Under the pieces are notes generated by a model. That model saw only the letters and a list, made by a program, of their open reading frames with translations, did no database searches and had not been told where the DNA came from. Below are positions 3,606 through 55,849 of a stretch of DNA of 64,000 nucleotides, piece after piece; the first letter of the stretch is position 1; each line of letters begins with the position of its first letter. The stretch comes from Phoronis australis (taxonomy: Eukaryota > Animalia > Phoronida), in assembly GCA_002633005.1 (NCBI GenBank), contig NMRA01000011.1, positions 780,855 through 844,854 of the forward strand, given 5' to 3'. The translations under genes were made by a program, and so were the position numbers.

Positions 3606-6097
3606 CCTTAGCTTCTGATCGTCCCCCAATTCACGATATATAATACTAAGTGGTCTTTCACTGGAGATAGGAATTCCACAGATGTTTCACGTCAGCCTTC
3701 TATGTCAAACAAAAATCTCAATAAATTTACTTAAACAGGGATTTAACAAAGCATCAGCAATTGTTCTTTCTCCTGAAAGTCAGGTTTGTTGTGTAATTTT
3801 GTTGGAATTTTTTTGGGAAAGTGGAAACTATACATTTTTGGAAACCTCACGGAATGAAAAATCAAAAAATAATTGATTCCATTTTTTGGCGGCCATCTTA
3901 GGTTTTCAAAAATGGCACCGGTAAAATGGATTTTGTCCAATATCTCCACTTTTGGGTCACTTAGAACGTTGGTTTTTATGGCTACACCTGCATTTCTCAG
4001 GTCAAGGAATTGGAAATTATAATTTTTGGGTGCCATCTTGGTGGCCATCTTGGAATTTTAAAAATAGCGCCCGTAAAATACATTTTCCTCAGTGTCTTTG
4101 CTCTTGGGTCACTTAGAATGTTAGTTTTAATGGCTGCACCCATATTTTTGTGGTCAAGAAATCTGAAAATGCAACTTATTAAATGAGAAACATAATCAAA
4201 ACTCCATTTATTAGCAGCCACATTTTCTAAATGCATTCTTCGTGTAATCTGACACATGATCACTATCTTACTTTCTTGTATATTTTGTTCGGAGCTTGTT
4301 TCCTTCCAGACTCTTGAAACTAAAACAGTACCTAAACAACTTATTTACGTTTGAAAAGTATGTTTTTTGTAGTGTCAATAGTCTTTCAAAACTGTGAAGG
4401 CAGTCTATAGATCATTACTATACTCATCACTGCCACCAGGAATCATGTCATCATCACCATTCTGACATTCTGCATTATACTGAAATAGATCTGTGTAAGA
4501 TAGGTCCTTTGATTGGCAAGAGCATCTTTGGGAAGAGGAATTGTTTTTGCACTGGCATCTAACCATCTCAATGATAGCCTGTGGTGCCGGAAGCTCATCA
4601 GTTGTGAGTGTTTCAGCTGGTCATCTTTGTCCTTGTAAATTCATTCTGCAATGGGTCAAGGAACTCCTGTTGAGCAAAGACTGCCTGGCCCCACAGGTAG
4701 TCTCGGACTTCACCTTGAACTGACTCGCATGAATCGTCTACAGGAGTTACGACGCATTGGCCTTGATGGAATTTTTTTGTGCTTTGATCGCGAACTTGCT
4801 GGAGCAGGACGCTTTAAATGCCATCAGGAAAAAGAACAATTGCTCGTGGTTTGTTGAATTCCTGTTTTGTGTATATTTATTGAGGTTTGTGTTTGATAAG
4901 GATGGCTGAAGTGAGGCACCTGTGGAATTCCTATCCCGAGTGTTAGACCTTATGGTATTATATTTGTATTGGGGACAATCAGAAGCTAAGGACGCCTGTG
5001 CATAAAGCCTCTTTAAATGATTTGCCAAGCGGCATTGCCTCATGGCTGAACATTTAGGATGCTTGGCTCTCACATGGGAAACCCTGGTTCAAGTCTGAGT
5101 GTAAGCAAATTTTTCAACATTGGTTCCCAACAATGGTAGAAATCACGACCAGACGGGCAGTCCGGAGTCACACTCCAACAATTGTAGTGGAAACCCAAAC
5201 CAGAGACATGGCCAACCTGGGGGGGGAGGCAAGAGGCATGCTTGAACTGCAGAAGAGAGAGGAGTGTTGTGATACGTGACTTACATGCGTGACACACAGC
5301 CAAGTGGCAATTGCCTCTTGGCTGAGTGGTTTGACGCTCAGCTCTCCCGCTGCATACCCCATTTCAAGTCTCGGTTTCGACAGGTTTTTCAACAATTGTT
5401 GACTCCACATAGATCTTGAAATATCACACTGGCCGCGTAGTTCTTCTCGTGAACTTGTCATGAAACTTATATCAACATGTAGAGCTATCGACCAAAAGGT
5501 TTGCATACACAATCAGGGAGTCAACCAATGCTTACCAGACCTTGCCTGTTATAGCCATTTCATTTGGCACCACAAAGTCATGACAACACCACAATCGAGC
5601 AAGCACCCGAATTACAACGGGAAATATATATACGGAACTAACGGAAGTTGTAGTCATTTGGTAAAAACTTGAAGGGCCAAATCAACTTGGGAGGGGAGCT
5701 AGTACAAGGGATACAAAACAAGTTCTCTAGTTTCGCATTATTTTCACTTGCTAAGTATACCATAATCATATTGATTGCCACAAAAATAAGTATGAATGTG
5801 CAACTTAATAAGTATCACAATACCATAGAATTTCAGTCATTTGTCTTGTAAAGCATAAAAAATATGGCTTTTCAAACACTTCTTAACATTGTGTAGCACC
5901 ATGTTTGACTACATGTAAAGAGAAGACCACAGTTTGGACACTAGACCTTGGTTCAAGGGGTCACTGGTTTGTTTCTCGGCTGAGCTAAGAACAAGTATAG
6001 ACAAAAATTAGTCATCAGAACGTCCAAAGCACAATTAGAACACTTAAAGACATTGTGTATAGTCTTGGAACTTGTGTATTTTGTTCAGGACTGAAAT

Positions 6098-6219
6098 ATG
6101 GGTGATAGTGATGATGAGTTTGAACGTCGATCTAGAGGAAGAGACAAGTTCCGCAGAGAAAGAAATGATTACGACAGAAGTAGTCGAGACGACCGTCGCC
6201 GTGACAACTGGGATGACAG
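6098..6219 (+). CDS. SRRT: SRRT first coding exon, duplicate copy (assembly overlap)
   Basis: Encodes [40 protein letters not shown](R), identical to 7834-7955. Confidence 0.7.
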
Positions 6220-6460
6220 GTGTGTGTGTGGGAGTATGTTTAGTTGCCTACTCTCAACTAATGGCTAAAGATACTCGGTACCTGAATGNCATTTGCCAAG
6301 TGGCATTGCCTCATGGCTGAACATTTAGGATGCTTGGCTCTCACATGGGAAACCCTGGTTCAAGTCTGAGTGTAAGCCAATTTTTCAACATCGGTTCCCA
6401 ACAACGGTAGAAATCACGACCAGACGGGGCAGTCCGGAGTCACACTCCAACAACTGTAGT

Positions 6461-6920: not shown

Positions 6921-7833
6921 TGTAGTGGAAACCCAAACCAGAGACATGGCCGACCTGGGGGGAGGCAAGAGGCATGCTTGAACTGCAGAAGAGAGAGGAG
7001 TGTTGTGATACGTGACTTACATGCGTGACACACAGCCAAGTGGCAATTGCCTCTTGGCTGAATGGTTTGACGCTCAGCTCTCCCGCTGCATACCCCATTT
7101 CAAGTCTCGGTTTCGACAGGTTTTTCAACAATTGTTGACTCCACATAGACCTTGAAATATCACACTGGCCGCGTAGTTCTTCTCGTGAACTTGTCATGAA
7201 ACTTATGTCAACATGTAGAGCTATCGACCAAAAGGCTTGCATACACAATCAGGGAGTCAACCAATGCTTACCAGACCTTGCCTGTTATAGCCATTTCATT
7301 TGGTGCCACAAAGTCATGACAACACCACAATCGAGCAAGCACCCGAATTACAACGGGAAATATATATACGGAACTAACGGAAGTTGTAGTCATTTGGTAA
7401 AAACTTGAAGGGCCAAATCAACTTGGGAGAGGAGCTAGTACAAGAGATACAAAACAAGTTCTCTAGTTTTGCATTATTTTCACTTGCTAAGTATACCATA
7501 ATCATATTGATTGCCACAAAAATAAGTATGAATGTGCAACTTAATAAGTATCACAATACCATAGAATTTCAGTCATTTGTCTTGTAAAGCATAAAAAATA
7601 TGGCTTTTCAAACACTTCTTAACATTGTGTAGCACCATGTTTGACTACATGTAAAGAGAAGACCACAGTTTGGACACTAGACCTTGGTTCAAGGGGTCAC
7701 TGGTTTGTTTCTCGGCTGAGCTAAGAACAAGTATAGACAAAAATTAGTCATCAGAACGTCCAAAGCACAATTAGAACACTTAAAGACATTGTGTATAGTC
7801 TTGGAACTTGTGTATTTTGTTCAGGACTGAAAT

Positions 7834-10800
7834 ATGGGTGATAGTGATGATGAGTTTGAACGTCGATCTAGAGGAAGAGACAAGTTCCGCAGAGAAAGAA
7901 ATGATTACGACAGAAGTAGTCGAGACGACCGTCGCCGTGACAACTGGGATGACAGGTGTGTGTGTGGGAGTATGTTTAGTTGCCTACTCTCAACTAATGG
8001 CTAAAGATACTCGGTACCTGAATGTACCGGGCACTCATCATTGTCTGTGTGCATAAATATACAAATACAAACACTTCATTTCAACTTTTAATTTCTTGCT
8101 AGTTACTGATTAAGGCGCCAACTGATTTCTATTATTGGTTTGTTGGAGAAATGGAATCAACATTGCTGTCATGACCTATTTACATCATTGTAAAAATGCC
8201 CGTGTCCAAGTTAAATTTACATTGGCGCACCATTTTGGTTAGTCATTTTTCCAGCCATCTTCGGGTGTTTCATGTTTGTACAGTGTTCTTTGAAGAACGA
8301 GCACGGGTATGTGGTAAATGATGAAAGAGGTACACTTTTTTTCAAAAGTTTTGTATTTTTCCTTGGGATGCAGTCTGTGCTGGTAGATGTAGGTACCTTC
8401 CTCAAGGGTTCTTGTAACTGAATTATTAACTCTGGCTGTTTCCACATCTTTCATGTGTTCATTAGGCTTGTAGTAAAAGTTTCTAATCAAAGGTTACATG
8501 GTATATTACTCCACCAGGTGTCTCCACGATTTAGGTACTAGTTTAGGAGTAACAGGGAACATGGTATACTTGTGTTTACCTTTGTGTGTAAAAAAATTTG
8601 GACAGCCCACCACACTCCTTTTTGGCCCCGCCACTCGTAATCTTTCACCAAATCCTGATGGGGAAAACTTCACCACCATACAAAAATCTAATGAACGTGA
8701 AGCCGTGTGCTCGCTGGCATGTCCGCTGACTAAAAACATACTTTAGTTGGTGATTAATACATTGGAATGATAGAAAACTTTTCATACTCTGGGATCACAC
8801 AATGACACATCATTGTCAATGTGTCTTGGGAAGCACCCTTTACCTAGATACTTCCACTTTGTACCTTAGTCACTTGCTCAGGTTGAGGTCCTGTCTTTGA
8901 GAATGAGTGCAACAGACTGCACCTAATTACATCTATTGTTTTCAAATTTTCTGGGGGAGACCCCCCAATTGGAAGGGGATCCCACACCCGCATGCGGTGT
9001 CGGGCTCTGCATCCACTGGGACCATTCACCACCATGCTCATTTCGAAACTCGAGGGACACCATATGTACTACTCCACTAGATGTCTCCAGCATATAGGTA
9101 CTATTGTAGGAATCACTGGGCAAATGATATACCACTCCAATAGGTGTCTTCACCGTATACGTACTATTGTAGGAATCATAGGGAACGATGATATACTGCT
9201 CCACTAGATGTCTCCACCATATAGGTACTATTGTAGGAATCCCAGAGAACATGATATGCTACTGCACTCCACTAGTGTCCTGAGAAACTCTAAGAAGGAA
9301 ACTTATGGAGTTATTGACTAGACACCCTGATGAGCTTATTTAGAGACTTCTTTATTGTGTTTTATGTGTTTGCTATCATGCTTTGGTATGTTGTTCTTTT
9401 TAGAGAATTGTTTGTTTGTTACAGGGTTGTGTTATGCTTTTCTATTTGAGAAGAACTACGACACTGATCTCTTTCTTTGTTATCTCGTCTTAAGCAAACT
9501 GATGTGTTACAGAGGGCGTGACAACTGGAGTAGTCGTAACCGCGACAGTCACCGCAGAGACCCCTATGGTCGAGACTATGATAGGCGCAGAGACCGGTAT
9601 AGTCCCCCTCGAAATGACATGAGTCCACCTCACATGAAGCGAATGAGACGAGATTGGTAGGAACTCTTGTATTTTGCTGCTATTTGGGCCTTACCCATTA
9701 CTTTGATAATAGTGATGCACATTACACCGTCTGTGCTTATACTTACACTGGTCCCTTCATGGTAACAGAAACTGGACAATGGTAGCAGTTTTTGCATTGT
9801 TTTGTTATGTTAATGGATACAGTAGGCAATGCGTTTTATTTGTCCTAGTGTCTCACACACCAGCTTTATCAATCTGTAGGCAAGTCATGGTTAGTATCAA
9901 GTTTGGTACATTGTTTGTGTGGAGTGTCTGTCAATCCGGTTATGTCATTCCACTGAGGCCTGATTTTCAGCAGATGAATTAGAGCAAGATGAGATTATGG
10001 CTTCACATTGAATGTACCTGAAACAAAATCTGTTTAGTATGTAGTTTCACCATTCAAACTATGTGTCACAATTATGTTGTACCAATGCTTTTACTTTAAA
10101 TTTGTATTCTAAATTCAAATGAACCGTGTTTTGATTTTGAGCATTGGAAACGCATGGCGAAGTTGTTCTTTATTCTTTAATACAATTTAAACTTGCGTCA
10201 CTGGTGACTTTGTGGTTTTATTATCAGCTTTTAAACAAAATGGCGCATGTTACAGTAATTGAGAGTGTACTCATGTTTCAGGGATGATGGTGGTTATGGG
10301 CGTGGCTATGACATGTACCAAGGAGGTCCTTCCCCCTCGGGACACAGGGGATGGGGGCCTGGTCATGACATGCCACCCCCACAATCGTATGGAGGTGGAG
10401 GGCCTGGCCAGAGGTAGGACTTTGTCCATCTTATTCTTACATTTGACAAAATCAGACAATGTTTGTCAAATTAATATATATGCTCTGATGAGAACCCTTT
10501 TTAAGAAGACGTGTTACAAGTTTGGTTGTTTGGAACAGGTGGCCAAGGGCCGTCATGCATGGCCTGCACATGTCCGGTACAACATATACCAGACCGCCTG
10601 CAATTATTTTAGTCGCATTTTCACACTAGCATTTTAATGTATCTGTTTTTACGACTGATGTTCATGGTTTTCACTAGTGTGGAGCCCAGTCATGAATACA
10701 TCACCTTTGTCCACCTCTCCCTTCAGGCTTCCTGAGGTCGACTACCCCACACAGCCCCAGATAATGAGCTTCAAACAGTTCCTGGCCAATGCTGAGGACA

Positions 10801-19800: not shown

Positions 19801-22800
19801 GGTTAGTTAAAATTAAGACAAAACTTAAGTTAAAAAGGTTACGTCAAACTTAAGATCTCTTTCTTGAAATGGATTTTAGGCAAATGCAAGTTTTATCTTA
19901 GAATTAGCTTAAATTTAAGATTGGTCTTAGCTAAGTCAGTTTTCTTGTAATGAGCCCCAGGTATGCTGTTCGTCTCTAATTTTTGTACATTTGTCATTTT
20001 GAACCACTTTCTTTGTCTGTATACTTCATTAAAAAAGGTGGCATAACTATAAAAAATATTTTCCATTTAAAAGATTTAGAAGAGTTGCACTGATTAGCAC
20101 GTACGTGGATGATGATTACTGATAATGGCACTTTGTTATTTGTATGCTTTATTGGTGATAACTGACTTTGCAATATATCTACCTGAACAGGTACCAGCAC
20201 TGACGGTGAAGTCAAGGAAGGTGAGGTGCAGGTAGAGCGTGATGAACCCCTCTGTCAGGTAAGCACTCCCATGTGTGTGTGTGTCACCCTCTGTCAGGTA
20301 AGCACCCCCATGTGTGTGTGTGTCACCCTCTCTCAGGTATGCCATCCTCCGCTCTCCCCTTGCACAGCGTGCAATGAAGCAGCTGTTAGAATTTTTAAAA
20401 TAAGTCAATTCCAGTTGATGCCTTTCTAGATTCCTGCCAGTGTCAACAGACTTGTCACACTGACTTCCATTTATTCTCTGTCATGACTTTCCATCATTTC
20501 ACCTTTTATTATTCATTATTTTGTCTATATTTCTAAACTTTTCTCTTGGTTTTATTACTGTCTTCTCAATGCATGTGCTCTGTGTTAACATGACATGTGT
20601 CAAGATTAAGTCACATGAAATAATCCAGAAGCTGGTAAAACTCTTTAAAATCATTGAAAAGTCTTTTATTTAAGATTCTGGCTTTCGAGCCTAATAGGAA
20701 CAACCCGTCTTTAGGTATGAAGACAAATGGCTGGAAAGTCTGTCTTTTTTTAAACCAATTTTTATAATTTCACTGGATTTTATTTTTCCTAGTTTAATTA
20801 TTACAACCTGTCCCACTGTCGCTGTTCTTTCACATTTCCCAGAATTCCCTGTCTCCACATTATCAGTGTGGAGCACATCTATTATTAGAAGCTTCACAGT
20901 AATACTGAATAAACAACTATCGTGTGGAAGGTTTGACATAATAATACAACTCACAATTCTCAACGAGTCCATGAGGACTACTCGGGTGAAAACACAAATG
21001 GCTAAGAGTCTGGAGATGACAGAGAAAATATCTTTTAATGAGTTGGAAAGTCATAGTTCAAGAAAATAGGTGAATAAGCCAAGTGGGTATATGTATGGAG
21101 TATCACTTGTTCTGTAATTGTAATGAACCATCGAGCATAAACAACTTAAAATGAAGATTGAATAATCTGGAATATCTGTAATCACAAATTGTATACTAGT
21201 ATGACTAACCCATCACTCTTTGTCTTATTTATTCGACGCTCCGTCTGTCTTCTGCAGGTATTGGATCGAATGTTGATGTATCTGCGTATCGTTCACTCCA
21301 TTGACTTCTACAGTGGCATCGAATACCCTAATGAACACGAGATGCCCCATCGTTGCGGCATCATCCATGCCAGGGGACCCAAACCGAGCAACCCCATCCC
21401 TCAGAAAGATGGTGAGATTTGCATTATTATTTTGTGGCATTATTATATGCCCGCATTTACATTAACATGGTTAAAATCACCAATTTTATATCATAAACAC
21501 CCATCAGTCTATCAGCTGTCAAATTAGGACACCCGCAAATACTATCTGACCATATGTTAATTAGCTGATCTCAAGTTATGAGAATGTATTGGTCGAAATG
21601 TACTTCATAAATAAGGAACACCCAATCACAGCGCTAGTCATCCTCCATTGTGTTTAGTGAGAAAAGTCGTCAGATATTGCTGTGGTTTATGGTATAATAA
21701 GGAATGGCCAGGTGTTGCATTTGTTGTGGTTGTGACAAGATAGTGTTGGTTTATGGTGTGGCTCTTTTCACTTTCCCACGGGACATCGGAGAAGGGCAGA
21801 TATGGCTCAGATTTGTACTAGAAATTCGTGTGTTGGTGGACATGACACGCTGGCCCTGGATATGTTCATGTGTCACACTGATGGCCATGACACGCTGGCC
21901 CTGGATATGTTCATGTGTCATACTGATGGCCATGATACGCTAGCCCTGGATATGTTCATGTGTCATACTGATGGCCATGATACGCTAGCCCTGGATATGT
22001 TCATGTGTCATACTGATGGCCATGATACGCTAGCCCTGGATATGTTCATGTGTCATACTGATGGCCATGANCAGGGGACCCAAACCGAGCAACCCCATCC
22101 CTCAGAAAGACGGTGAGATTTGCATTATTATTTTGTGGCATTATTATATGCCCGCATTTACATTAACATGGTTAAAATCACCAATTTTATATCATAAACA
22201 TCTATCAGTCTGTCAGCTGTCAAAGTAGGACACCCGCAAATATTATCTGACCATATGTTAATTAGCTGATCTCAAGTTATGAGAATGTATTGGTCGAAAT
22301 GTACTTCATAAATGTGGAACAACCAATCACAGCGCTAGTCATCCTTCATTGTGTTTAATGAGAAAAGTCGTCAGATATTGCTGCTAGTTTTGCTGTGGTT
22401 TATGGTATAATAAGGAATGGCCAGGTGTTGCATTTGTTGTGGTTGTGACAACATAGTGTTGGTTCATGGTGTGGCTCTTCACTCTCCCACGGGACATCGG
22501 AGAAGGACAGATGTGGCTCAGATTTGTACTAGAAATTTGTGTGTTGGTGGATATGACATGCTGGCCCTGGATATGTTCATGTGTCACACTGATGGCCATG
22601 ACACACTGGCCCCGGATATGTTCATGTGTCACACTGATGGCCATGACACGCTGGCCCCGGATATGTTCATGTGTCACACTGATGGCCGTGACACGCTGGC
22701 CCCGGATATGTTCATGTGTCACACTGATGTCCATGACACGCTGGCCTTGGATATGTTCATGTGTCACACTAATGGCCATGACACGCTGGCCCTGGATATC

Positions 22801-25800
22801 TTCATGTGTCACACTGATGGCCATGACATGCTAGCCCTGGATATGTTCATGTGTCACACTGATGGCCATGACACGCTGGCCCTGGATATCTTCATGTGTC
22901 ACTGATGGCCATGACACGCTGGCCCTGGATATGTTCATGTGTCACACTGATGGCCATGGAGCTAAGAAACAGTTGAAGTCACTTTTATACTATTTTTTCT
23001 TTTCTGGGATATTTAATTCATGATTGTGATATTCAGTGCTATAAATGAAGGTTTAATGGTGCTGATATTGGTGGTTTAAGCACCTTGCGTGTCATCCTGT
23101 CATCTGCTGCTCTTTCTCCTAAACCCCTGCAGGATCTTCATGAAATTTTGTAGACGTGTTGCGATGGAGATGACAACAGATGGCGGCAATTTTCAAACAC
23201 ATCTGATTGCTGCTGTGCCATCAAGTGGCCATCTTTGTTTTTTTTGTTTACGTTTCCTTTTGTATCTACCCAGTTCCATGATGGGTTTTTATGAAATTTG
23301 GCTAGGGTATTTCTTTTGAGATGACATCTTCCCAATTTTGGACAAATTTGACTTATTCTGTGTCACAAAGTGATGATTTATTATTTTCAAGTGTGTTTGG
23401 CGTCTGCTTCTCTTGCTGCCAAACAGGTCGAAGGATAATAATGAAAATTGGCTGATGTGTTCTACTGAGAAGACCACAACTGACATTTATTTTCAAACAG
23501 GCCAGACTACTGTGGCACCCCCAAGTGGCAATTACGTTTTTGCGTTGGCTGTATCTCCTAAATCTCTTCAATTTCAAATGTTACCAGAATTCACTTGATG
23601 TTCTATAAATGCTAAGTCAAAGGAGGCAGTATATTGTTATGAATGTTGTTGTGATTGTAGTATGACGACACATTGTTTTTTCATATTTCAGTCAATGATC
23701 ACATGAAGCACATTGAAAATAAACTAAAGCCAATGAGTGAAACCCGGTCATTGTTGACGGACGAGGAGGCGACCCCTCTGGGAAAGAAGGATGCCGAGCA
23801 GTATCCTTTTGAATTTTGACAGTACCCACTGTGTCACTGGAACTTAAGGACCTTAATGTCACCTGGTCATTTTTTGAATGGTATCACAATCATGCCGTTT
23901 TGCTAATTCCAGGGAATCATTGCTACATTTCATGTGGTATGCATTTACCACATGTATTATATGTATGCCAACTCCAAGAACGTTAGTTGTACTTTTTAAT
24001 GCTGTCTGTACGTTAGTGTGTTATGGTTTTGCATTCTTCAAACGGTGTTGCTTTGAACTAAAGTGTATGGCACTCTTTAGTGCTATGTGTTGTCTCAGGA
24101 CAATTTTTGATTCATTAAACCCCCTTTAGCTGGTATGTAGCTGTCAACTTATTGTTGATTGGTGAATGTTTTAGATGCAAACACAATAACTGATAATTAA
24201 TAACGGCAACGAACAAAGAATGTAGTCATGTCTCTGTATCGCAATGATGCATGTGTAGTAGTTTTCTCTGTGATTAACTTTTGGTTTGTCATGATCATCA
24301 AGTTGTCCTGAGACACTGTTATTGCTTTTATTGCCATTCGGTTCCCATGTGTGCATGTCCGATACTTGGTTTTGGTGCAACTTTTTTTTTAAGATTACAA
24401 ATTTTTTCCGAAGTGGTTTCAACCATTCAGAGTGCTCCACTAGTCTTACTCCCCCTAGTGGCAATTTTGGGTCAAGAGATTTTATTGAGTTTTGCTGAAG
24501 CAATGTTTAACAATAAGTGCAGTTACAAAGTTGCCAACTGTCATGGATTTAATTGTATTATACCCACTTTTAGAGCCTAAAAATCCCTGGACCTTTTAAA
24601 AAATTGTGAATTTTTTGCTATTATTTCTCTTCAAAAAATCAGCTGAAAGTAAATTTATCATTAAAGTTGTTGGTGTTTTTGAGGTGCCAGGTCAGCAGAA
24701 AACTCGTAAAAGGCGTAAATAGTGGAGAGTGCATGATTCAACCAATGAGGCGCATCCTGAGTAGCATTGTAGTGTGTAACTTGCTTTCTCTTTGGCGGTT
24801 GGTCAATTGACGCTTATGTGGCTTAGCATTGTGGGATGTCATGTGCTTTGGAAATCAATTTCAGATGTCAAGATTGGAATTTCAGAGACGAATAGGTTAA
24901 GAAATTAAATTGCATTTAGGAAATAGGAAAAGGAATATATGGCATTTTGACACCCCGACTTTGACATTGAAAACCTTAGGTCTCTACAACATCAGTGTGG
25001 ATTGGGAATTTCAGGATATCTAGATTTGCTGTGTTGTGGTCCAGTGGACAGCAATCAACCGTACTGAACACAAAACATAGTTGTGATCGGTTGATTTTTT
25101 AAGTTTTTAAGGTTATATAGGACTATCAAAAAGTGGCCAAATTTGGCACATTTTAGAATGTCGTATCTTGGGAGTGGTGGATTGGACTGGAGTGAAACTT
25201 TCAGACATCTTACTTTCTGTACTGTTCTCCAAAACGGTGTTAGGAATTGTTTTTGAAATGTTTTTCATGAGGGACTATCAGAAATAGAACTTTTAAGGTT
25301 TTTACGAAAAATTCAAGAACGGCGTAAAACGAAAATGAAGTAATTTAGAAAACTGTAACAGCATTTTTTAATTTTCATCTTGAATATTTTTATCAGAGTT
25401 TTGTTATGGATGTACCTTTCTTTTTGTTAATTTTTCTACAAAATACGTAGTCACATGATCCAAATATCAGATTGGTATTAAGTCAAAACTCAGGTTCTAC
25501 AGGCTATTTTCAGAAAATGTGTATTTTTGCTAAGCTAAAATCTATAATTATTTAAATATGTGGCTTAATGCACTAAGTGGATAGGTTATACATAATGTCA
25601 TTGTTAGTAGAACACGATTTGAAACCAACATTTGTTTTTGTGTACCACACCATATTTGGTTGAAACTCAAAATTCTGAAAGTATTGCAAATTGTACTAAA
25701 TGGGTTGATGGCCTTCAGTTGACCCTGATTGATGTTTGGAGTGCTCAAAGTACTTGAGCTCCCCCTGGTGGTCATGTATTAAATGGCTGGAGTCCTCCAA

Positions 25801-28800
25801 TCAGTTATTGGTTATTTTCATAGGTGCACTTTTAGAGCTCAGAAAACTATTTAAAATAAGATTCCCTTTGAACTTTGAGAAGTTTGATAGTTTGCGACGG
25901 ACTTTGCGTAGTACATCCCAGTGCATCGCCCTCGTAATGTGACATCAATGTGGCATTTTCACTTGTTCTGTTGTTCGTTACAGACAAAACCCTTGTTTTA
26001 CTATTAAGCATTTTTGGTGTAACGTTTCTCTCATTGTTATAGCTTGGCAGGTCATGAGTATAAGTTAACTGCTGGGTTGCTTGTGTTGATAAGGATCGGT
26101 TCTTTGACAAAAATTAGTCATGGTATCGTAAATATAATTTATTATAGTTTAAGTTTCAAGTTACCATATAAATATTCACTCATAAATTTAACATTATATT
26201 AAAACATCAGTTATAAATAATAGATCTGTACAAGAACCTGTCTCATAGACATTATGTTCAACTGTTCAATTTTAACAAGGCAAGATATTAGCTTGAGCAA
26301 TGTATGTGTAAGTCTACTGCACTGTTCACTTTGGTGTTCATGTCTGTTGAACAGTTCACAGTGTGTACGGTTGTACACGAAAAACTCTCCACTGGTCTCT
26401 CGCCATCGCATGTTGGGACCTAGTGTTCTTACTGCGCAGACGTTTGTTAGAGAACCATTTCTTGACCTGTTCTGTGGTAATGTGTCCACTGTGTGCTAAC
26501 TCTTCCACTTCCTCATAGGTGGGGTAAGGACAGTCGAGGTGGGCAGTGTACCAAGCACTCAGCACTGATACAGTACTTGAACTGTGCTTTCTTCTTGTTT
26601 TTCTTCCCACACTAGTACTACACTTGGGACTTGGCACTTTGGTTTGGGATTTCACTGATAAATCTATTGGCTTGTCCTCGTCCATCCACTTGCTGTTGTC
26701 ACTTACAGAGAGTGTCATGTTACCATGGTAACGCACTAATGAGTGTTCGTGCCGAGATGTGTTGCCTGGTGGTGACGAGCTGGCTGCACTGTATGGGTGT
26801 GAGGCGTTGAACACTGCATAGTGGTTGGTGGTCTCCCTGAGTGGAGCTGTCAACAGTGGTGTGGGCGGGTAACAGATGTAGGGGGGTGGACCGTAGACTG
26901 GCATGACCCTTCTGTGAACTGAGCTGTGTAGACTGGCAGCCTCTCTCTCCCAGGGGCGGAAGTAGGCAGGTAGCTAGAAACATACATGGCTACAGATTAG
27001 TGTCATGCATTGAAAAAATACAAGTGTCATTTGTTAAGAGTACATCTGGGCCTGTTTACTTTAAAGTTAAAAGCTAGATACGTAACAACAACTGATGCTA
27101 TTGTTGAACACTATTTGGACATCATGCAGTGATCAAACTCGCGCATCAAGTAAGTGTGCAAGTCTTTTGGAGCGCCCTCTGTAGTCTTGCTTTGACATGG
27201 CAGTATAAACATCTAGGAAACCTTGAGATATGACAGGAATTTAAGAATAGATTGTCATGGAAATCATGCTCAGTAGGTTTTTCTTGTTTATGAAAATACT
27301 ATTTGTCAGAACTTTTTCCATAGCAACTATGTTAATTCTATTTGACAAAGTGGGTATTTTGGCAGTTCAATTTCCGAACCATTATAGTCACATTTTTTAT
27401 AATCTCAATCTACGGATCTAGTATCCCATCCAGTTGTTTCACACTAGGCGTGGAATGACCAATGACAAAAAAGGAAATTTGCCAGGTGATGTATCGTTTC
27501 ACTAATAAATAGGCTGATTTAAAAGAAATATTTTTGTGTTGTAAAATTTAACTCAAGTAAACGTTTTTGCATAAACAAAGTCAAAATAATGATAAAAAGA
27601 GACGAAAAAAGTGGAAACTGGAAATCAAATAAAAGGAAATCAAAACCAAAAAAGAGGAAATCCTCTTAAAAGAGTAAAATTTCAAGCCCTGCTCACAAAC
27701 ACATGGAAGGAATTAATCAGTTTATCCACTGGTAATATCTGATATGATTGAACTATAAGATACAAAACTTAATAATAACTTAATTCATTTGATAACTCAC
27801 AATTATATAATCTAGTTGAAGAGTGAGTCCAATTTGCACACAGATTTTTGTTGCAAAATTTGACTACTAAACAAAGTTTTGACTATTCTCCCATATTTTA
27901 ATCCTTAATATGTGAAGAATGACTGAGCACTTGGAATGGATATACCGGTAATATGAAAATTGATTTTGACAGACTTCTGTTGATTTTTTTTCTTTGAAGC
28001 ATATTTTTCCTGTTTTGAAGCGTATAGTGTTAAAGAATCAATATTTTGATGGGTGGTTTAATGTGTGACTTATCAATAGTTTGTCAACAACTTACTGTAG
28101 TATTGTAAGTGTAGAATTTATCTTTCACTCAGTTGTAAAAGTTGTAAATTTATTTCACGTTAATAGGCCCTGGCCCACATTACAAATATATAATAAACAG
28201 AGAGTACAGGATATCTTAACCAATATTAATTTACATCAAGAAACTTGTTTCGATGTTTCTCAGCATTAATTAAATATTAAGCAATTTTTCTCAAGTTATT
28301 TATATCATGAGTCTTTAGGAGATCCTTGAATACTGCTTCATCCACCCCATCGAATCTATGCAGAAACTGTATATTATGCAAATCAGAATATGATTTACAT
28401 TCAAAAAGAAAGTTCATCTCTGATTGCACCTTTCCACTACTTGTGTTTATTTATTTAGTGGACACCCTGACATTATGGTAAAATGATAACATTACGTTCA
28501 TCTTTTGTTGTCTAAAAAAGATTAAGTTGAACTTTGATTTTTTTTTGTTTTTAAATAGTTCAAAGTTTAACTTCTGTTTCTTTATGGTTGATTGACTCAC
28601 GATCCATATAAATGACAGTGAAGGTGAGACTTGATAACAAATAAATAACACAGAGAATATGGTAAAACATGAAAAAGAGAAGAAATAAAATTTTTGCAAC
28701 AAGGATAACACCAGACATTAGTTTCTGTTGTGGTTCTTTACGGATAACATACCGAATGAAGATGGATAAAAACTATTCATAACACTGATAATAAAGCGGA

Positions 28801-31800
28801 AATAAATATGTATTTTTAAGCATGAACAAAAATTCCGTTTGATGAGAATAAATTAATAATACATACTTAGAGTAGTAAATAAATAAGAAGAAATAAATAT
28901 TTTATAACTAAGATGGCAATTGTAATTTGTTTCTCTTATAGTTGAGGTACATTTTCATTCTTACCATTGCTTGTTCTCTTTCTGCAACCCAATCTTCTTG
29001 GTCATGAAGTTGTGAAGACATTCTGTTGCTGTTGTGGCTTGTGTCTCTGGTCTCTTTAACCCTGGCACTCTACCCTCTAGCCATCCCCAGCTGTCCTTAT
29101 ATAGCCTCTAGCATTGTCCCCAGTCCTGCTCTGGCATTGGTCAGAACAAGACAGGGTCCTGAAGACCCAACCTGTTGAGTCCAGCCTATTGTTGTGCTGG
29201 AGTTAATCCACTAAGTTGGAAAATTGGTGTGCTTACAAGCCTCTACTGTTTATAATGGCCAGTAATAAGCTAGTCTCTTTGATGTGTTCCTAGCATTGTT
29301 GGTTGGTTATACAGGTGACTAGGGGCCAGGGAAACCATAACTATTGCACTGTAGATTTGGGTAATTGTTGCACAATGGAGGTGTGTGATTTGATAGTCAT
29401 CTGTTACCTGGTTTGGTGATTCTGTGGAATGTGTCTATGTTCTTGATGTTTAGTAGGTACCCTGGTGTCTAGAAGATCAGGTGGAGGCCTGCTGAGACTA
29501 CATACACTGAACATTCCAGAGCAGATTTGTACCATGGAAGCTACAAAAGATTAAAGACTTTTTATTGGGCTGGGAATGTGATTTTGGGATTTTTAAATTA
29601 AAATGTTTGAGTGGAGCTGGGCTTGATAGTGGTGCAGGTGTTGAGATGTTGTGATAGTCAGATGTTTATGACATATCTACATGTTATGATAGTCAGCTGT
29701 TCATAACATATGAACATTTTATGGTTTAAAAGGGAAAATTTTGGAAAAGTTTTTTTTTTACCTGAATTTTTGTGATAATGGTGATTTTTATCTTAAGGTT
29801 CAAACTTGATGTTTCAAGTTTGTAAATATGAAGTTAGGTAGATGCGACATGGTGAAGACTTCTTGGTTTAATGCTCAATAGAATGAGATTGCTCTGTGCT
29901 GACTGATCTTGTTTCAAGTTAAAAAGTTTAGCAAAACAAATAAGAAGGAATTATGTGTACTCTTAGCATATGTGCTGTTAATGATCCTATCTTCAGAAAG
30001 GTGTTGGAAAACTGCTTGATTGATTCTCTGAGAGTGATTCCTGAATTGATAAGCTATCCTTGCTCAAAGCCATGTTGTGTATTGCAGGAGTTCCCACAAC
30101 TCTTTGTCCTTGGTGGGAGCTATCATTAACCCCCTCACTCCTTCACATGTGATTTAAGCCTGTCCCACTAATCCCTTTCTGAACACATCCTGTACTCCTT
30201 TGATGTCCTGCCTGGTTCCAAACGACATCCTCTTCTACAGCTAATAGTTTTATTTGCTCTGAAAATTGTGGAAATGACCTGTTGTTGTTTTGAAACTCAG
30301 CTGTGTCATAGTAAAATTCTTTGTTTTGGGATTTTAGTTCCTTCTTGTGTTTCTTGCTTTGCCACAAGTCTTATTTTTAAATGCTGCTTTGCTGTAATTT
30401 CACTGCACTTCACCAGGGTTGTATGACCATAGGCGCCATGGTATATGCCAAAATGCAATGACAATAAAGATTTTGATTAGATTTGTCTCCCTCTCCCCAA
30501 CCAGGTTTGAAGTTTCAGGTGTGGAGATCCTTGGTAGATATTGATTGTAAATAAGACGATTGTGTATTCTGTATGTAAATCATCATACAGTTGGTAAATA
30601 TAAAATAGCTGAATAAACATTGGTTTTCTACATTGTGGCACAAGGCTGGTGAATATGTAAATACAAGTGTGTTTACAATGTATAGAGAACGCCAATCGCC
30701 GCACGCCTCCAGCGTGTTTGTTGGCATTTCTGCACTCACAACATGTTTAAGTTTTCAGTTGTGCAAAACATTGATCATCTCTCGCTATGCTCCTATTTGT
30801 TTCTCAACTGTGCTCGCTATTCTCCTATTTGTTTCTCAACTGTGTTGTGGAGAAAGTGACCGTCTATGACTCACTCTTTCCAGTAATTAATCTAAACCAA
30901 TATCCCTTTCTCATCCTGTGGAAACCCTAAAGCATTCTTGCATGGATTACCTGCTTAGGATTTCCTAATAATTTATAATGAGTATTTACTTGTAAACAAG
31001 TCTTGTTGACTTTAGGACAATACTCTCTTCCTGGCTGGACCTTGTTTGTGTTTAGTGATAGGCATTGAGCTCTCTCAGTTTGACAAGTTGTGCCAAAACA
31101 TATGGAATGGCCACACTGTCATCAGATGTGATTAAATCATTTTAGACCATAGATTTGGTAGTGTTTGGTTACTGTTTGTCTAGAGTGAGGACTTCAGCAA
31201 AGTGAATCAGTGTTGAGAGTTTCTAATGTGTGGTCTTATTTTAAATCAAAAGCGGATTATTTGTAAGAACTCAGTTGCTTGGATCATTAATTTGCCCAGT
31301 TTGTTGAATATATGGTATACTGTGTTAGGGTTGCATTGCCTGTCATTCAGCTAACAGTGGCCGAGTTCTTGATATTGTCAGGGTGACATGGCACTAAACT
31401 ATGAATGGACCATCCTAAGGTTACTGTATGTAAAACAAGTCGTGCCGTATTTAGCCAAATGTCAGCAAAGTTATATATTTTAAACTCAGTAAAAATATGT
31501 ATTTTCTGAAAGTAGAAAGCTTGTATAATTTTATTTTTAACTTTACACCAATTTCCCGTAAATTGGGTCACGTGCCCGTGTCTTTTAAGTAAAGTTTAGG
31601 AGAAAGGAAACATACATTCATTGCAAAACAACAGTAACAGTAATATGACCAAAGTTCATTTGACATAAATGTTCAAGAGGAAATCTCAAGAATTGTCGCA
31701 GTTTTCTGAATTATGATTTCATATTTTTTGTTTTATGCAACTTTCCGTGGAAAAGTGGAACATTTAAAAAGCAATTCTTAGCAGCCATTTGGAGCATAGT

Positions 31801-34800
31801 GCATAAATATGGCATCTGAAAGTTTCATATGAACCCAGTAAGCCATTTCTGAGATATGGTGTTCTGAAGGTAGTCAAACTTGACATTTTTCTAGGGTCCT
31901 ACATAATCTTAAATTGACCAATCTATTCCTTCCCCTTACTCTAAATTAAATGGAATCCCACCTCTCCAGTGTTGATACTGTGAATGTCAGCTTCTTGGTC
32001 TAGTCATGGTCACAACGCTTGTGGCCCCCTGCTGTTAGTGTTGAGCTGGTCATTTCACTAAGGCTGCTGCTACTTACCCAACATGTCGGTCAAATAAGCT
32101 ATTTTTTGCTATTCACCTGACAATCTTGTCGAAGCTTTTATTAGTCAAGATAACGCCACAGCGTTGCTGTTCAAGTAAGTCATTTATGCTATTCAGGTGA
32201 CAAAGCCTCACAACCTTATTGACAAATTATTGCTGTCTACCAGATCAGTTCAACATTCTCATTGTTCCAAATTAGTCACAACCTTGTGGGCAAATGTAAT
32301 TGGTTTTTGCTATTAATCCGGCAATTTTTGTTAGCCTGATGATATTTGTTTTTTCTTATGTATAAAAGTCGGGTGGAACTTATTCTATAGAATGTACTTC
32401 ATTTTTGGTTCTTGTCAACAAGCCTTAGTGGTCTTTTCTGTAGTAAATAGAAATAGTAATTAAAACAAACATTAGTGGTCCTTGAAATAATAAAAGTAAG
32501 TTATTAGTTATGATAATTTTCTGTTGGATATGAAGCAAAAATGGTCTTTTGGTTGACAAGGATGTGATGTCATACATATTGACCCATGAAATTGTTAAAA
32601 AGGTTGCTGGATGAATAGCTAAAATCTTATTAGGCCAACTTGTCAGGTAATTAGTTTCTTTGTTGTTTTAAAGTTGCATTTTGCCCTGTTTAGCTGTCTA
32701 AAATACTGAAATCCTTTTGCTCTCATAAAATCGCTCTTATACTATTCCTTACTGTGATAGGATTCTGTTTCTGATTAGAATGTCTTAACAGTCACCGACT
32801 CAAAATAATTCAGTTTGTTTGGATTGACCAATACTAATATCGCACAAAGTTGAAAATGGCCAATGTACATCTTGCCTTGCTGGCTCATTGGGCAGCAATT
32901 TAAGATCTCCTGAGTGTAGCTATGATTTCAAATGCCTCTTTAATTTTCATAAAATCTGAAAATTTCTGAGACATAATGTTCCAAATTTGGACGTTGTTCA
33001 GCTTTACACATTACCTTAAGTGTTTAAAATAGTAGGAAAGGAAAGTACACAGAGATAATTAGAAATTACGTTGTAACGTTGAAAAGATGAAATAGAATGA
33101 TAAAGTGCATTTTTGGTTCCTTAACCGTGGCCAGAGAGGTAGAAAAGTTCATCACCTCTAACACACAGGAACTTGCCAAGGATAAGTGGTTGTGTCCCCT
33201 CAGTGGAAAGAAGTTCAAGGGGCCGGAATTTGTACGCAAACATCTGTTTAGTAAACATGGCGAGAAGATTGAAGATGTCAAGCGCGAGGTAAGTTAATGG
33301 ACTGGGCTCAAATGGGTGACAACAAGTGTGAGCTGAGGGCTGGGACCAAATGGGTGATAACCAGTACAAAATGAGGTCTGGGGCCAAATGGGTGACAACA
33401 AGCGCAAGGTGAGGGCTGGGGCCAAATGGGTGACGACATTTTTATGATATCTGTGCCTGACGATCACTGTGGAATGTTGAAATCAATTGAGTTTGTAGAA
33501 AACTTGTTTTATTAATAACTATGCTTACGTGTCAATGCACAGTTCTTCCACAAAGTTAACTTTTTTACTGTCAAGCGTTTTAGAACTGCATTTCCCAGAG
33601 ATAAAGATTTTTTTACTTGCAATTTACTAACACGAATCAATGGGCAGTGTTGCAGAAATGGATTTTGGTTGTAATGCATTCCACTTCTGACATCTACTCA
33701 GATTCTGGATCAAAATTGGTTTGAGTAAAAAATATTGGCTATGGCTAGTCCAGAGGTCACTGCATTCATTGCAATTGGATGAGTTTGGCAGAAAAAGAGT
33801 CAATGTTTAAGGTTATGTATGGCCTGATTAACAAGACTATTTATTTAGACAATTATCTTCATAACAATCGATTTTAAATTGGTAAACGTATACATTTTCT
33901 GTGAAGAAAGCTTGTAGAATTTGTTTTTTAATTTTACTATTCCGACATGAATTGGGTCACCTAGCTATGTCGTTTTAGCAAAATGTGACAAAAATAAAAG
34001 TGCGTTGATTGCAAAGCAAAGGTATCCGTAACATTTATCAAATTTTATTTGATATAAATGTTCAGTATGAGATCTCAAAAGAGCTGTTACTTAAAATTCA
34101 TTTCATTTTATGTATTACATTTTTTTCATGAAAGTCATAAGTCTTATTTTTGACAGCCCCTCATGCAAAAGCGGAACATGTTAAAAACAATTCCTACTGG
34201 TGTTTGGAAGAGCAGTGTGAAAACCATAGTAACTGTTTTGCTCGTATGAATCCAATCAGCCATTTCTGAGACATGATGTTCCGAAGTCAGTCAAATTTGG
34301 AACTTAAGAGTCCTACATAACCTTAAATTCATTTTCTTTGTATTAGAGTAGCAACGAAACCATAGTAATCACATGACGTGTAGATGTGCAACGAAACCAT
34401 AGTAATCACATGACGTGTAGACGTACAAAGGAGTTGGTTAACTTCTTGCAGGTCGCCTTTTTCAACAACTACCTCGTGGACCCTAAACGACCGTCACTGC
34501 CGGAGCACCCTGCCGTGAAGCAGAGCGCTAGTAGTCGAGATTCTCACCGTAGTGGGGGTTACCAGGGTGGGCCACCCCATGGAGGCATGGGAGGGTATGG
34601 CCCTCACCAGTCGCCCATGAACCAAGGTGGAGGTAGGTGCACGATTGTTGCTGCAACTTGGTAATCTGTATACAGTATAGCTGTAGCTACCATTGTTTTC
34701 CTTATGTGGCTTGACATTAGGTGTCGTGACCAGCCAGAAAATCTTGATTACAAATTAGAAAATGATGCTCTTGTGAGAAAAGCTAAACCCTAACTTGAAA

Positions 34801-44780: not shown

Positions 44781-47700
44781 ATGGCATTAGGGTGTGGTTC
44801 CAAGTTGGCCAAAATGTTCCTTATTGTGTTCAACATCATATTTTTCGTAAGTATATGTGGTTTCTTTTATGCTCATTTAACTTTAGTGACACTTTTTTCG
44901 AGCAGCGCCATCTAGAATTTCTTTTTTGTAGATTTTGACTTCGTTTCAATTGATAATCTTTTTCACATGTCTTGTAAGTAAAGTACGAACTGTGTTACTT
45001 CGTTTCTTTAAATGTTATTGTGCTTTCAATTGCCAATTGTATCAAACATGATATATGTCGCATTTTGCCGTCATGAGAAGGTTTAAAGTGTCTGTAAACC
45101 CACCTTTCATAACAAGAAACAGTTTATGACGTAGATAACGTACCAGCCTGAGATTGGTCTTACATTGTGCCGTGGTTGAATTAGTGGAGATTCCAGGGCT
45201 TTCAAAGATCTGGACGTTTGTTGCCTGAGCCCAGGCTCTACAATTAAAGTTAGATTGTCACGGCGTGCCACTTTATTCGCCGAGCAGATATAAATCTCAT
45301 TTCTTTGACGGAACGCGAGTTTATAATCGTTGAATCGAATGTTTTTAAACGAATTGTTGATTGGAACACTACACTCTCGTTTGCCAGGCGGAGATACATG
45401 GATTTCATAAGCGCGGCAAGCCACATCCTTCCATGAATACGGGAAAAGTCTGGGCAATAAAACGTCACGAATATAGTTTTTCTTCTTTATTCCAGATATT
45501 GGGTGCCGTGGCTCTCGCCTTGGGAATATGGGTGTTGGTGGACAAAACACATCTAATCACGTTGACCAAAAGCATTAACACATTTGACGTGCCCGGCTTA
45601 CTCGAGTCTGGTGCCTACGTACTCATTGCTGGAGGCGCGTTCATCTTTGTCGTAGGATTCCTCGGCTGTTGCGGAGCAATGAAAGAAGTCAAGTTATTCT
45701 TGATCTTGGTGAGTTCGGGTGATTTAATGATATGCAAATGCACTTTCCAAACATCGGTGTTGATGTTTTGTGTTAAGCCTTTGCTCTTTATGAAACATTT
45801 TAAATTGATAAAGAAATTCTCAAAACGAATTTTAACGTAAATAAAGTTAATCGAAACCTGTTCCCATGCTCTTGAAACTTAAAATGTTTTTTAAACAAAC
45901 GGAAATTTGTGGCGAATAAAGAAAGCTGTTAAAAAGTTTCAAAACAGCATACCAGCATTTCGTGTCTGAAGGGCCACTGGGTAAACTGTTCTCTTGTGGA
46001 TGAGCCCCCAATTTTACCATGAGGTGTCGCTCAATATTGCTGAAACGTGTATTATTTGTAAATTTTTTCTTGTCAGCAATATCTGCTCTATCGTATTTTT
46101 TCTGTTATTTCTGTCGTCCGAGGTCGTTTCTAACGAAACATGACACTGTTTATCGTGGAAAAATAGACAGAAATATCTTATCTAAAACATCCCCATATGC
46201 AGCACCGTTGCTTGTGGGAGTAGGCTTACCCGCCTAACACACCATTACTTGTGAGAATAAACTAATTCGGGTAACGATCATTGAATAAGAAATGAGCTTG
46301 TGTCATGTTCATGAAATCTTTATTTACAGTACGCTATCTTTGTCATCATCATTTTTTGCGCTGAGCTGGCGGCGGGTATCGTCGCTTACTTCTTCAGAGA
46401 TCAGATCGTGGCCCAGCTAAAGACGTACTTAAACGAAAGCATTGCACTGAAGTACGAGGGTGTCTGGGGCACAAGCGAACCCTTCTCTCTAGCATGGGAC
46501 TTCGCTCACGTCACGGTACGTTTTGTTCTAAGATGGCCTATTAGTTTGCATTTTTGGTTCGTTGAAAAGCGTAGTAGTCTTCTAACACTTTTGAGCAGAT
46601 TTGGGGAAATTGTTACAACTTTTGGTCGACTGAAAGTAACTTTGAAATTCTTGGTAGAATGCTGCAGTTTTCAAATATAATTTACTAATTAGAACGATCT
46701 TCTGTGCATTTATGTATATAAAAAGTGTTATAAGGATAGAAAGGTTCCCTTCAGTTATTTGGGGGGAGAGGCGAGCCAACTTCTGACGCCCATCCGTGAT
46801 GATTATCGTACGAAAACTGCACAACGCCTATCTCGTAACCAGATTAATAATTAATGATGCATCTCGCCCAGTTAGGCAGACTAAAAAACGATAATTGAGT
46901 TAGATTCTTTACTCCCATAAAGTCGGTCTAATAATATTCTTTGTCCCATTGGTTTCCATGTCCGTTACCAACGAGAACGTCGAAGCCATCTGGGTCTCAA
47001 TAAAACGCTTCGGAGTTTATTGACTGGCTGGCCAACCCTGAAACAGCGCATGTATGCGTTGCCTGTTACTTGAGTTGTTGAGGATACAAATGTTGTGACG
47101 ATGAAGAATGTTATGAGACTAATTGTATGGAGCTTTAAACATCTGACACGCGCCACCTAGTGATTCCCCACTGAAATATGTTTGAAGCTTAACTGATACA
47201 GTGAAATGTGCTTACGATATCAGCTTTTTTTTTTTCTGCAAAACCGTCTGGACAAATTTTTGTTGTCCGTCGTTTCTGGATTTCCCAGTCTCATTCGCAT
47301 AATTTTTGAGTAGGTAATGAGCGAAACCTAAGTTACCTATTCACTGATGACTTTGTGGTAAGCAACCGAATAATCGAACACGAGTTGATTTGTGCTGCTT
47401 TCATTTCATATAGTTCGACTGCTGTGGCTTCAACAACGGAACTGATTTCACTGAGGCAACGAAGTGGAATCGCACAATGGTCGTGAATGGAGTTACCTAC
47501 GCGATGACCGTCCCGCCTTCATGTTGCAAAATCAAGGATAAGTCTAAGTATCCATCAGACGTCGCTAATATCGTGTTGACCGACAACATGTGCCCCATTA
47601 CACCGTCAACCACCAACTCAAACTCTAATACCGTAAGTAAACATGGACCATTTGCCTAAGTACAGTTTATTAACTTTGAAACCGTTCCTCAAAACTTCTG

Positions 47701-54060: not shown

Positions 54061-55849
54061 ACGGGCACCCACATATAAATATGTGGGCGCATAAAAATGA
54101 CTAATCCATTCCAATGAAACTTTCAGATACTATGCTTTATGCTCGTTCTCCAAACCACAGATTGGAATTGTTTTAAATGATGTACTTTTGCAAAGGATAT
54201 AAACAAACATTACTTTTATTATTTCACGAAAAAAAAACAAAAGCTGCATTAAACGGAAATAAAATGTTAATTTAGAAAACTGTAACAGTTTTTTGAGATT
54301 TGATCATGAACGTTTACATCAAACAAAATTTGGTCATTACATAATATTATGGCCTCTGGTTTTGCTATTAATATACCTTTCTTTTTGCTTAATTCAATTA
54401 AAAAGACTGTCACTGGACATTAATGGCACCCCGTATAAAGGCAAAATCCAAATCTACAAGCTTTCTACATTCGAAAAATGTATGCTTCTACTGAATTCCA
54501 TTTTATAGTTTTGAAGACATTTAGCTGACTGCACTGAGTGGTTGATAAGGTCCAACATAAGCCTAACCTTATTTGGTTGGTGAAGTCCCTGGCCAGGCCT
54601 TGATATCAGAGAATGTCTATACACATCAGGGAAAATTGCCGATTTGTAATAAAATTGCAAAAAAAAAGATTTTATTTTTCATAGCTCTGGTCAAAGCTAA
54701 TAACTTCAAAAAGACTATCCCATCCAACAAAAATCCACAATATGCAGTTTTTACCAAAATAATGACTCAATGTCCCCTTAAGTTCATTGTTAAAGCAAAA
54801 AATTATGTTTAATCCTAAAATACTCAAAGCTGGCAGAAACAATAGCCTGTACTCGTTTGGACAAGAGATCAAGTTAAAAAGATTCTAAAAATCATATAAA
54901 AAGTAATGCTAAGATAAATTAAATAACAGAATTTTAGCCAGATAGCTTAGATTGGATTATCCTAGTTCAGTGGGGTTACAGAGGGTATATTGCTAAGACA
55001 CACACAACAAACCAGAAAATAATTATGCTTAATTGTATTAGTACTAGTTACTAACATACAAACACACATACTTATAAATAACCCCTTATTGCACGATTAT
55101 CATGATAACAGGAATGCACAACATACACTTCCTCCAACATATAATAGTGAAGGTGAAAATCAAAATAAAAAAGGGCTTTTAGCCTAATTGTCAAGTTGAT
55201 ACAAATGCTCCGATCCTAATTCACTAGTATCTCCACAGTGAACAAGCCTCAAGGATCCCACCAGGTCATACAACAATTATTCAAGATTAAGTTTCAAATT
55301 TGAAAATGCAAAACGAATATAAAACCTTGATTTCACGTCATTTTCATTATCAACAATAAATCACCACACGTAACCAATCACATCAGTCTAATTTGCACAT
55401 ATATGTGCATTTTCAGTTTCAAAACAAATAAAATAGTCTTGTATTACTGATACAATAAAACACGCATTGTCTCAAGACAACAGAGGGCACACTCACCCAA
55501 TACTCTAACACAACTCCAAAACCGTAAAATGGTTAAAGTTAAGAATACTTAAATTAGCCTACTCTTTAAAAACTTCAAGTGCACAAAAGGTTCACTCTCC
55601 ACAAAACAAAACAACCGTCCATTTTCTAACAATACCCTCACACTAGACCTTATTATGCAGGGAGCATCAGTAGATGGACAAGCATGATCTAGTAGTACAG
55701 TAAGATTGGACGTTAAAACTACTGCAGACAAAATGAGATCAGTATCCAAGTTGTGCCAGCGAGGCAACGTTTGCAAACTCATGATGGAAAAATGAGATCT
55801 GGTCACTTAAATGTTAGTGGTACATAACAAGAATGGTGGATACAGTGCC

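Follow-up and report, generated by a model that had tools for sequence, protein, structure and literature searches.

A predicted SPILE-type TALE homeobox gene lies antisense in the SRRT U12 intron of Phoronis australis and carries candidate Groucho and CtBP motifs

In the 64,000-nt stretch analysed here (the window; Phoronis australis assembly GCA_002633005.1, contig NMRA01000011.1, positions 780,855 to 844,854 of the forward strand, numbered from 1 below), an intron of the SRRT/Ars2 gene encloses a minus-strand unit with a TALE homeodomain. The locus raises the question of whether this unit is a gene, to which family it belongs, how its product may act and whether its lodging inside SRRT matters. 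The anatomy of the nested unit is confirmed, and the predicted gene is likely a further member of the known SPILE family, the spiralian TALE clades that were reportedly set out by Morino et al. in 2017. In our preferred reading, which we hold at a probability of about 0.62, it is a duplicate SPILE gene whose own TATA promoter would make a short early-embryo transcript, and whose protein would repress its targets through Groucho and CtBP.

The nested unit runs antisense to SRRT and comprises a CCAAT box, a TATA box, a 19-codon exon, a 1991-nt intron, a 205-codon exon and an AATAAA signal, for a product of 224 aa:

29136..29140, minus strand: CCAAT box (predicted)
29096..29103, minus strand: TATA box TATATAAG (predicted)
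28965..29021, minus strand: coding part of predicted exon 1, 57 nt, 19 codons, with ATG as its first and last codon
26974..28964, minus strand: predicted U2 intron, 1991 nt, phase 0, with a GTAAGA donor at 28964 and a TTTCTAG acceptor ending at 26974
27000-26996, minus strand: CTAAT branch site of this predicted intron
26356..26973, minus strand: coding exon 2, 618 nt, 205 codons plus stop
26947..26961, minus strand: FRPWE, predicted Groucho-type (WRPW-like) motif at exon 2 residue 5, upstream of the first Met of that exon
26656..26670, minus strand: PIDLS, predicted CtBP-type PxDLS motif at exon 2 residue 102
26419..26607, minus strand: TALE homeodomain of SPILE type with Ser50, assigned by Pfam, structure comparison and a tree
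26138..26143, minus strand: AATAAA polyadenylation signal (predicted)

An initial annotation, made from the letters alone, had described this unit from CCAAT box to AATAAA, and every element that it named lies where it had been placed; FRPWE and PIDLS were overlooked. It also explained correctly why the track of open reading frames (ORFs) misses exon 1 and the first 23 residues of exon 2: the in-frame stop ahead of the exon 2 ORF is the TAG of the splice acceptor, and exon 2 has no Met before residue 24. The GC content of exon 2 is 51% inside a host intron of 30-36%, and that of the nested promoter and 5′ untranslated region is 52% vs. 30% in the intron behind. The N-terminal 120 residues of exon 2 are predicted to be disordered. 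Taken alone, the predicted composite of promoter and exon 1 is weaker than the rest of the anatomy; it arose in 3% of 500 Markov resamples of that stretch, the pattern having been picked after it was seen. An ATG at 29084 (minus strand), 19 nt behind the TATA box, starts a 4-codon frame closed by TAG; it probably lies upstream of the transcription start, but with an earlier start it would form an upstream ORF. There is no second copy of the nested gene within the window, Rfam gives no match over 9000-37500, and among 76 ORFs of at least 45 aa, to which the Pfam scan was not applied, no further one longer than 111 aa overlaps the host intron.

The host gene is SRRT/Ars2, as its exons match the Pfam models SERRATE_Ars2_N and ARS2. 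The SRRT proteins of Owenia and Potamilus align in order over about 6-36 kb of the window. These two (81% and 71%, respectively, over 51 aa) are the named ones among 14 SRRT matches and speak for a probable lophotrochozoan. The host intron and its surroundings are as follows:

23692..23800, plus strand: SRRT exon upstream of the U12 intron, joined in frame to the next exon, with RNA reads and a contig
23801..33134, plus strand: SRRT U12-type GT-AG intron, 9334 nt, host of the nested gene, with GTATCCTT as 5′ site at 23801, TTCCTTAAC as branch and an RNA junction
33117..33125, plus strand: U12 branch site TTCCTTAAC, from the sequence
33135..33288, plus strand: SRRT exon downstream of the U12 intron, Pfam ARS2 at E 1.2e-27, with RNA

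The intron has an RTATCCTT 5′ site and a TCCTTAAC branch near its 3′ site, and it is used in vivo: the junction 23800>33135 is carried by 30, 32 and 16 reads in RNA runs X1, X2 and X3, respectively (78 in total), and by one X4 contig. Thus, the U12 assignment made initially stands. X1-X3 are stranded raw-read runs, of which 18-19% each was read, X4 consists of contigs, and tissue and stage are unrecorded throughout. Away from repeats, the read depth within the intron is about 0-3 vs. 14-50 at the flanking exon; splicing of the host intron is thus efficient in the sampled RNA, with no sign of disturbance. No statement of a U12 intron in SRRT was found in the literature at the level of listings. 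Thirteen sense-strand AATAAA hexamers lie in the host intron over 27504-32489 (plus strand), seven of them at 28640-28892 within the AT-rich intron of the nested gene, and no read pile-up ends were reported at these hexamers.

The homeodomain scores 44.8 bits against the Pfam model Homeobox_KN, for which the cut-off is 24, and therefore it is not a chance match. It is 63 residues long with the three-residue loop extension and PYP of TALE homeodomains, aligns to PBX/Exd without gaps, and keeps all 11 residues that are invariant in an alignment of 17 proteins. Structure prediction gives three confident helices, and the closest solved structures are those of Exd, PBX1 and TGIF1. However, as no SPILE structure is among the matches from the Protein Data Bank (PDB), this ranking cannot discriminate SPILE from PBX. 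An atlas comparison returned generic homeodomain clusters at a likeness of 0.83 or less, which serve as leads only. The homeodomain is the single match in the six frames of the window. As had been claimed, there is no PBC or MEIS domain, the Pfam scan of exon 2 yielding homeodomain models only. PADRE is absent as well: under a profile that matches 59 of 150 relatives (the best of 1627 matches in a protein search over 1.84 billion representatives), the query scores −0.7 bits, and the six frames of the window contain no match to this profile.

The placement of the homeodomain was assessed using a tree of 72 rows and 63 columns, hand-picked from 209 anchored domains plus PKNOX, in which MEIS, TGIF, IRX and MKX are absent and bootstrap values are rough. 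The PKNOX rows stem from a search for canonical TALE families that gave 40 proteins, all those with a known source being PKNOX or other homeobox proteins of insects. The SPILE anchors, named or matched by eye to the alignment of PMC6118893, are P0079 (Capitella orphan C), P0148 (oyster TALE13) and P0016 (Patella TALE-IV.1). The query falls inside a 45-row SPILE-type branch (support 95/80) that unites single-domain SPILE-type proteins with the first homeodomains of proteins that have two. PBX and PKNOX fall outside this branch, and there is no order within it. Its end branch of 0.46 vs. a median of 0.32 is not flagged as long. In approximately unbiased (AU) tests run on 34 rows, the grouping of the query with PKNOX is rejected (p 0.02), and that with B-type homeodomain 1 is not (p 0.66). 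At 14 sites where PBX differs, the query has the SPILE majority residue, and at 4 it has that of PBX; the diagnostic SPILE sites include W-Y in helix 1 and N-T after helix 3. The SPILE profile gives the query 95.8 bits and PBX 78.4. Identity over the 63 residues is 26-35 to SPILE, 27 to PBX and 19-23 to PKNOX, and reaches 32-35 with the named Capitella and Patella proteins and the B-type domains. Taken together, the nested gene is likely a non-canonical TALE gene of SPILE type, with its subclade not assigned, which bears out the family proposed initially.

The initial annotation had also stressed that Ser at homeodomain position 50 fits none of the PBX, MEIS or IRX types. The query does have Ser50 rather than Gly50 or Ile50, but this residue is ordinary within SPILE: published examples are oyster TALE-VI 11-13, Spirobranchus TALE-VIII, SPILE-Z, Capitella IV-like and Helobdella XIX, and 11 of 115 SPILE-type domains have it. 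Ser50 was therefore rejected as the mark of a new family. SPILE genes are described, in PMC6118893 and PMC8524836, as a fast-turnover family with many orphans. At the top of the relative search stand P0001-P0005, multi-homeodomain TALE-like proteins with 4-10 matched homeodomain stretches each. A further group, the P0144 cluster, holds 13 near-identical Ser50 single-homeodomain proteins, some on equally long contigs, and suggests a tandem SPILE array in one animal.

Among the SPILE clades presented in PMC6118893 and PMC8524836, the nearest are the single-homeodomain A/C-type, the TALE-VIII-like genes and homeodomain 1 of the B clade (TALE-IV). The nested protein shares with these clades the TALE loop, the helix-1 W-Y, QVKKW, the N-T after helix 3 and Ser50. 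Unlike the A/C, B and D clades, which have PADRE according to PMC8524836, it lacks this domain, and it has one homeodomain whereas the B clade has two. The E clade is likewise without PADRE; the helix 3 of the nested protein differs by eye from the published E sequences, none of which was identified among the relatives compared. PBX/Extradenticle has the same TALE fold but carries Gly50 and PBC domains, while the Ile50, WFINARRR and MEIS domain that characterize MEIS/PKNOX/TGIF are all missing from the nested protein. TGIF is a TALE repressor with a PLDLS CtBP motif, and its pairing of a TALE homeodomain with PxDLS offers a works-like analogy only: TGIF has WFINARRR, its structural-alignment identity is 33%, and the nested protein is not a TGIF member.

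Two short motifs in exon 2 may indicate how the protein acts, and the pattern of each occurs once in six frames of the whole window, within exon 2. Huckebein is cited for its Groucho motif FRPW in PMC6547707 and PMC2674455, and CtBP is recruited by PxDLS according to PMC9890238. FRPWE is present in 3 of the 150 relatives, with a shuffle mean of 0.005, and P[LIM]DL[ST] in 16, with a shuffle mean of 0.4. In 75 metagenome loci found with a homeodomain-only pattern (342 kb in total, on short contigs), FRPW[EQ] occurs 6 times on the coding strand and PxDLS 5 times, and neither occurs on the opposite strand. In three of these loci, FRPW stands a few codons behind an acceptor-like site, as in the nested gene, but in other phases. 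Since FRPWE precedes the first Met of exon 2, the conserved motif needs an upstream start; thus, predicted exon 1, and with it the two-exon structure proposed initially, gains independent support.

The layout of the query looks like that of P0098 (in order: FRPWE, PADRE, PLDLT and a Ser50 homeodomain) minus PADRE. Both proteins would have an N-terminal FRPWE and a PxDL[ST] shortly before a single Ser50 homeodomain, and they are 36% identical over 107 residues; P0098 differs in that it keeps PADRE, its homeodomain is identical at 27 of 63 positions, and the sister pairing has a support of 65. PLDL[ST] also recurs in long two-homeodomain, B-clade-like SPILE proteins (P0011, P0019, P0027, P0030, P0033, P0038, P0039, P0041, P0044, P0053, P0055, P0060, P0061, P0077 and P0084), which suggests that CtBP recruitment may be a feature of this group. 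No report of corepressor motifs in SPILE proteins was found in the literature covered (listings and word counts, with supplements partly searchable and Morino 2017 outside the search), and the SPILE papers covered, PMC8524836 among them, make no mention of repression, Groucho or CtBP. Motif look-ups in published supplements were also blank, but they are weak, as they met gapped alignments, picture alignments and unreadable FASTA, and this may bear on whether the motifs were noticed earlier.

In every SRRT junction read the first mate is on the minus strand, and hence the libraries are stranded and a nested transcript would appear as first mate on plus. At 80% likeness, 22 reads fall on 26050-27250 (14 from X1, 8 from X2, none from X3 or X4). 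All are from the SRRT sense strand and run unspliced through the nested acceptor; each aligns over its full length and none is less than 90% alike, such that no paralogue reads are found among them. Given that all 22 are sense to SRRT and unspliced, the nested locus is truly part of the SRRT pre-mRNA, and its own gene is off in the sampled RNA. Silence in three runs fits a stage-restricted gene and a dead gene equally. According to PMC8524836, SPILE A/C- and B-clade genes start zygotically at 4-16 cells, and according to PMC12550047 more than 10 unclassified TALE genes of Owenia rise at genome activation.

In the preferred reading, a lineage-specific SPILE paralogue, intact-looking and with two predicted exons, would lie antisense in the SRRT U12 intron, where it would have arrived as a DNA-level duplicate, since it has an intron and a promoter. 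Its TATA promoter would yield a transcript of about 3 kb, active in a short early-embryo window around zygotic genome activation, as for other SPILE genes. The homeodomain would bind DNA, with FRPWE recruiting Groucho and PIDLS recruiting CtBP, leading to gene repression. Early zygotic genes are generally short and TATA-driven and housekeeping mRNAs generally maternal, which would separate host and guest in time; the two would mostly avoid collision through their different transcription times, and the nesting would be lodging rather than regulation.

Several points weigh against this reading. The first-mate-plus depth is 0 over both nested exons in all three raw-read runs, and neither minus-strand reads nor the 28965/26973 junction appear there. 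Divergent TALE genes are not confined to embryos in their expression, some being active in regenerating adults (PMC6118893). Near-duplicates reduce the metagenome loci to about 4 independent cases for FRPW and about 3 for PxDLS, and in only 2 of the 75 do FRPW and the homeodomain motif lie in one open frame. FKPY of Znf703, a similar motif, is dispensable for repression (PMC6547707). As the query was the probe with which the SPILE-type set was collected, this set leans towards it, and the AU test did not reject the query with PBX (p 0.37); the placement in SPILE is of moderate strength. No orthologue was found among the best 150 of the 1627 matches, the best homeodomain identity being 35 of 63, and hence there is no ratio of non-synonymous to synonymous change. 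A word-index protein search scored none among 71 candidates of 112-359 residues.

A young pseudogene, i.e. a SPILE duplicate that fell silent too recently for its frame and motifs to have decayed, would account for the lack of antisense reads and of PADRE, and the frequent gain and loss of SPILE genes mentioned in PMC8524836 would suit it. We consider it unlikely: the locus has retained 205 open codons at 51% GC within an intron of 30-36%, together with the invariant homeodomain residues, both motifs, the promoter, the splice sites and the poly(A) signal, the end branch is not flagged as long, and the window holds no second copy. It is rather improbable that the gene is a fast-evolving PBX homeodomain that lost its PBC domains. 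The solved structures of Exd/PBX1 and the AU result lean that way, and the 27 identities to PBX fall in the SPILE range, but the PDB ranking is non-discriminating, the tree puts the query in SPILE, two starred or near-starred forks away from PBX, the diagnostic sites stand 14 vs. 4 for SPILE, and FRPWE and PxDLS are common to the query and SPILE-type proteins. Delivery as transposon cargo has to be considered in view of the repeats in and around the gene:

25193..25547, strand not assigned: copy of a dispersed repeat of about 500 bp, inverted relative to the copy at 31448-31915, with 66-77% matches to 31448-31915, 33842-34329 and 54115-54526
31448..31915, strand not assigned: second copy of the same repeat, from the repeat comparison
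27440..27700, strand not assigned: high-copy repeat in the intron of the nested gene, with a pile-up of partly fitting reads from elsewhere and short matches elsewhere in the window

The two inverted copies flank the gene, with arms 78% complementary over 37 nt, and a scan of viral contigs gave two stretches, one of which was counted as a relative, with no locus returned. Against cargo, which we regard as very improbable, the repeats are 66-77% alike and other copies of their dispersed family, just as distant, lie outside the intron, no other ORF above 111 aa overlaps that intron, and the X1 and X2 reads, none of the 22 below 90% likeness, place the locus in the SRRT pre-mRNA. Nesting could also be functional, in that an antisense burst holds back elongation of SRRT or its U12 splicing and adjusts ARS2 levels in the early embryo, or that host transcription keeps the guest off elsewhere. 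The opposite strands, the full overlap within a minor intron and the silence of the guest where the host is active are compatible with such coupling, and U12 introns generally splice slowly. The chances of this are slim: the depths in the host intron give no splicing defect in the samples, none of the 75 relative loci has an SRRT exon next to it (on contigs too short for a real test), and nesting is common and mostly unconserved in vertebrates (PMC2151771).

Does the lodging itself matter? Like the nested antisense genes covered in PMC2151771, this is a complete gene on the opposite strand of a host intron, the difference being that the intron is of U12 type, which also sets it apart from the described SPILE genes. 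No report of a homeobox gene within a U12 intron was found among the titles of literature listings. The initial annotation regarded the nesting as remarkable; the antisense position in SRRT is real, but nested genes number 972 among 22,291 in human (PMC2151771). Its further suggestion, that the gene uses the open chromatin of its host or collides with it, finds no backing, as nested reads are absent where SRRT is transcribed and the host intron is spliced efficiently. Nothing shows an interplay between the nested gene and SRRT, and the nesting is probably incidental.

SPILE genes specify blastomere fates, and the recurring FRPWE and PxDLS turn their mode of action into a question for two-motif mutagenesis; this family-wide repressor lead, rather than Ser50 or the nesting, carries most of the value. 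That repressor motifs occur across the SPILE family, irrespective of any coupling to a host, could go either way. A far bolder version is a long shot: many SPILE proteins would be dedicated repressors that pattern spiral-cleavage blastomeres via Groucho (N-terminal FRPWE) and CtBP (PxDLS), and the nested gene, lodged in the SRRT minor intron, would be a reduced form that recruits both corepressors but lacks PADRE, its embryonic burst also throttling ARS2. Furthermore, a gene that is stage-restricted, sits in a housekeeping intron and begins with an exon of 19 codons is easily missed, and SPILE counts can thus be low.

Elsewhere in the window, a 1.1-kb duplicate (5183-6288 and 6921-8024, 98.9% identical) ends at a single N (6289) and contains two copies of one SRRT N-terminal exon, matched at 6098 and at 7834; it is probably an assembly or haplotype join. 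A 0.7-kb duplicate (21365-22070 and 22065-22781, 93% identical), joined at a single N (22071), repeats the 3′ end of an SRRT exon and a 45-bp tandem array, and is probably an assembly join. Downstream of SRRT, the Pfam scan identifies exons of a tetraspanin gene at 45361-47659 (plus strand) and of an armadillo-repeat gene at 60273-61581 (minus strand).

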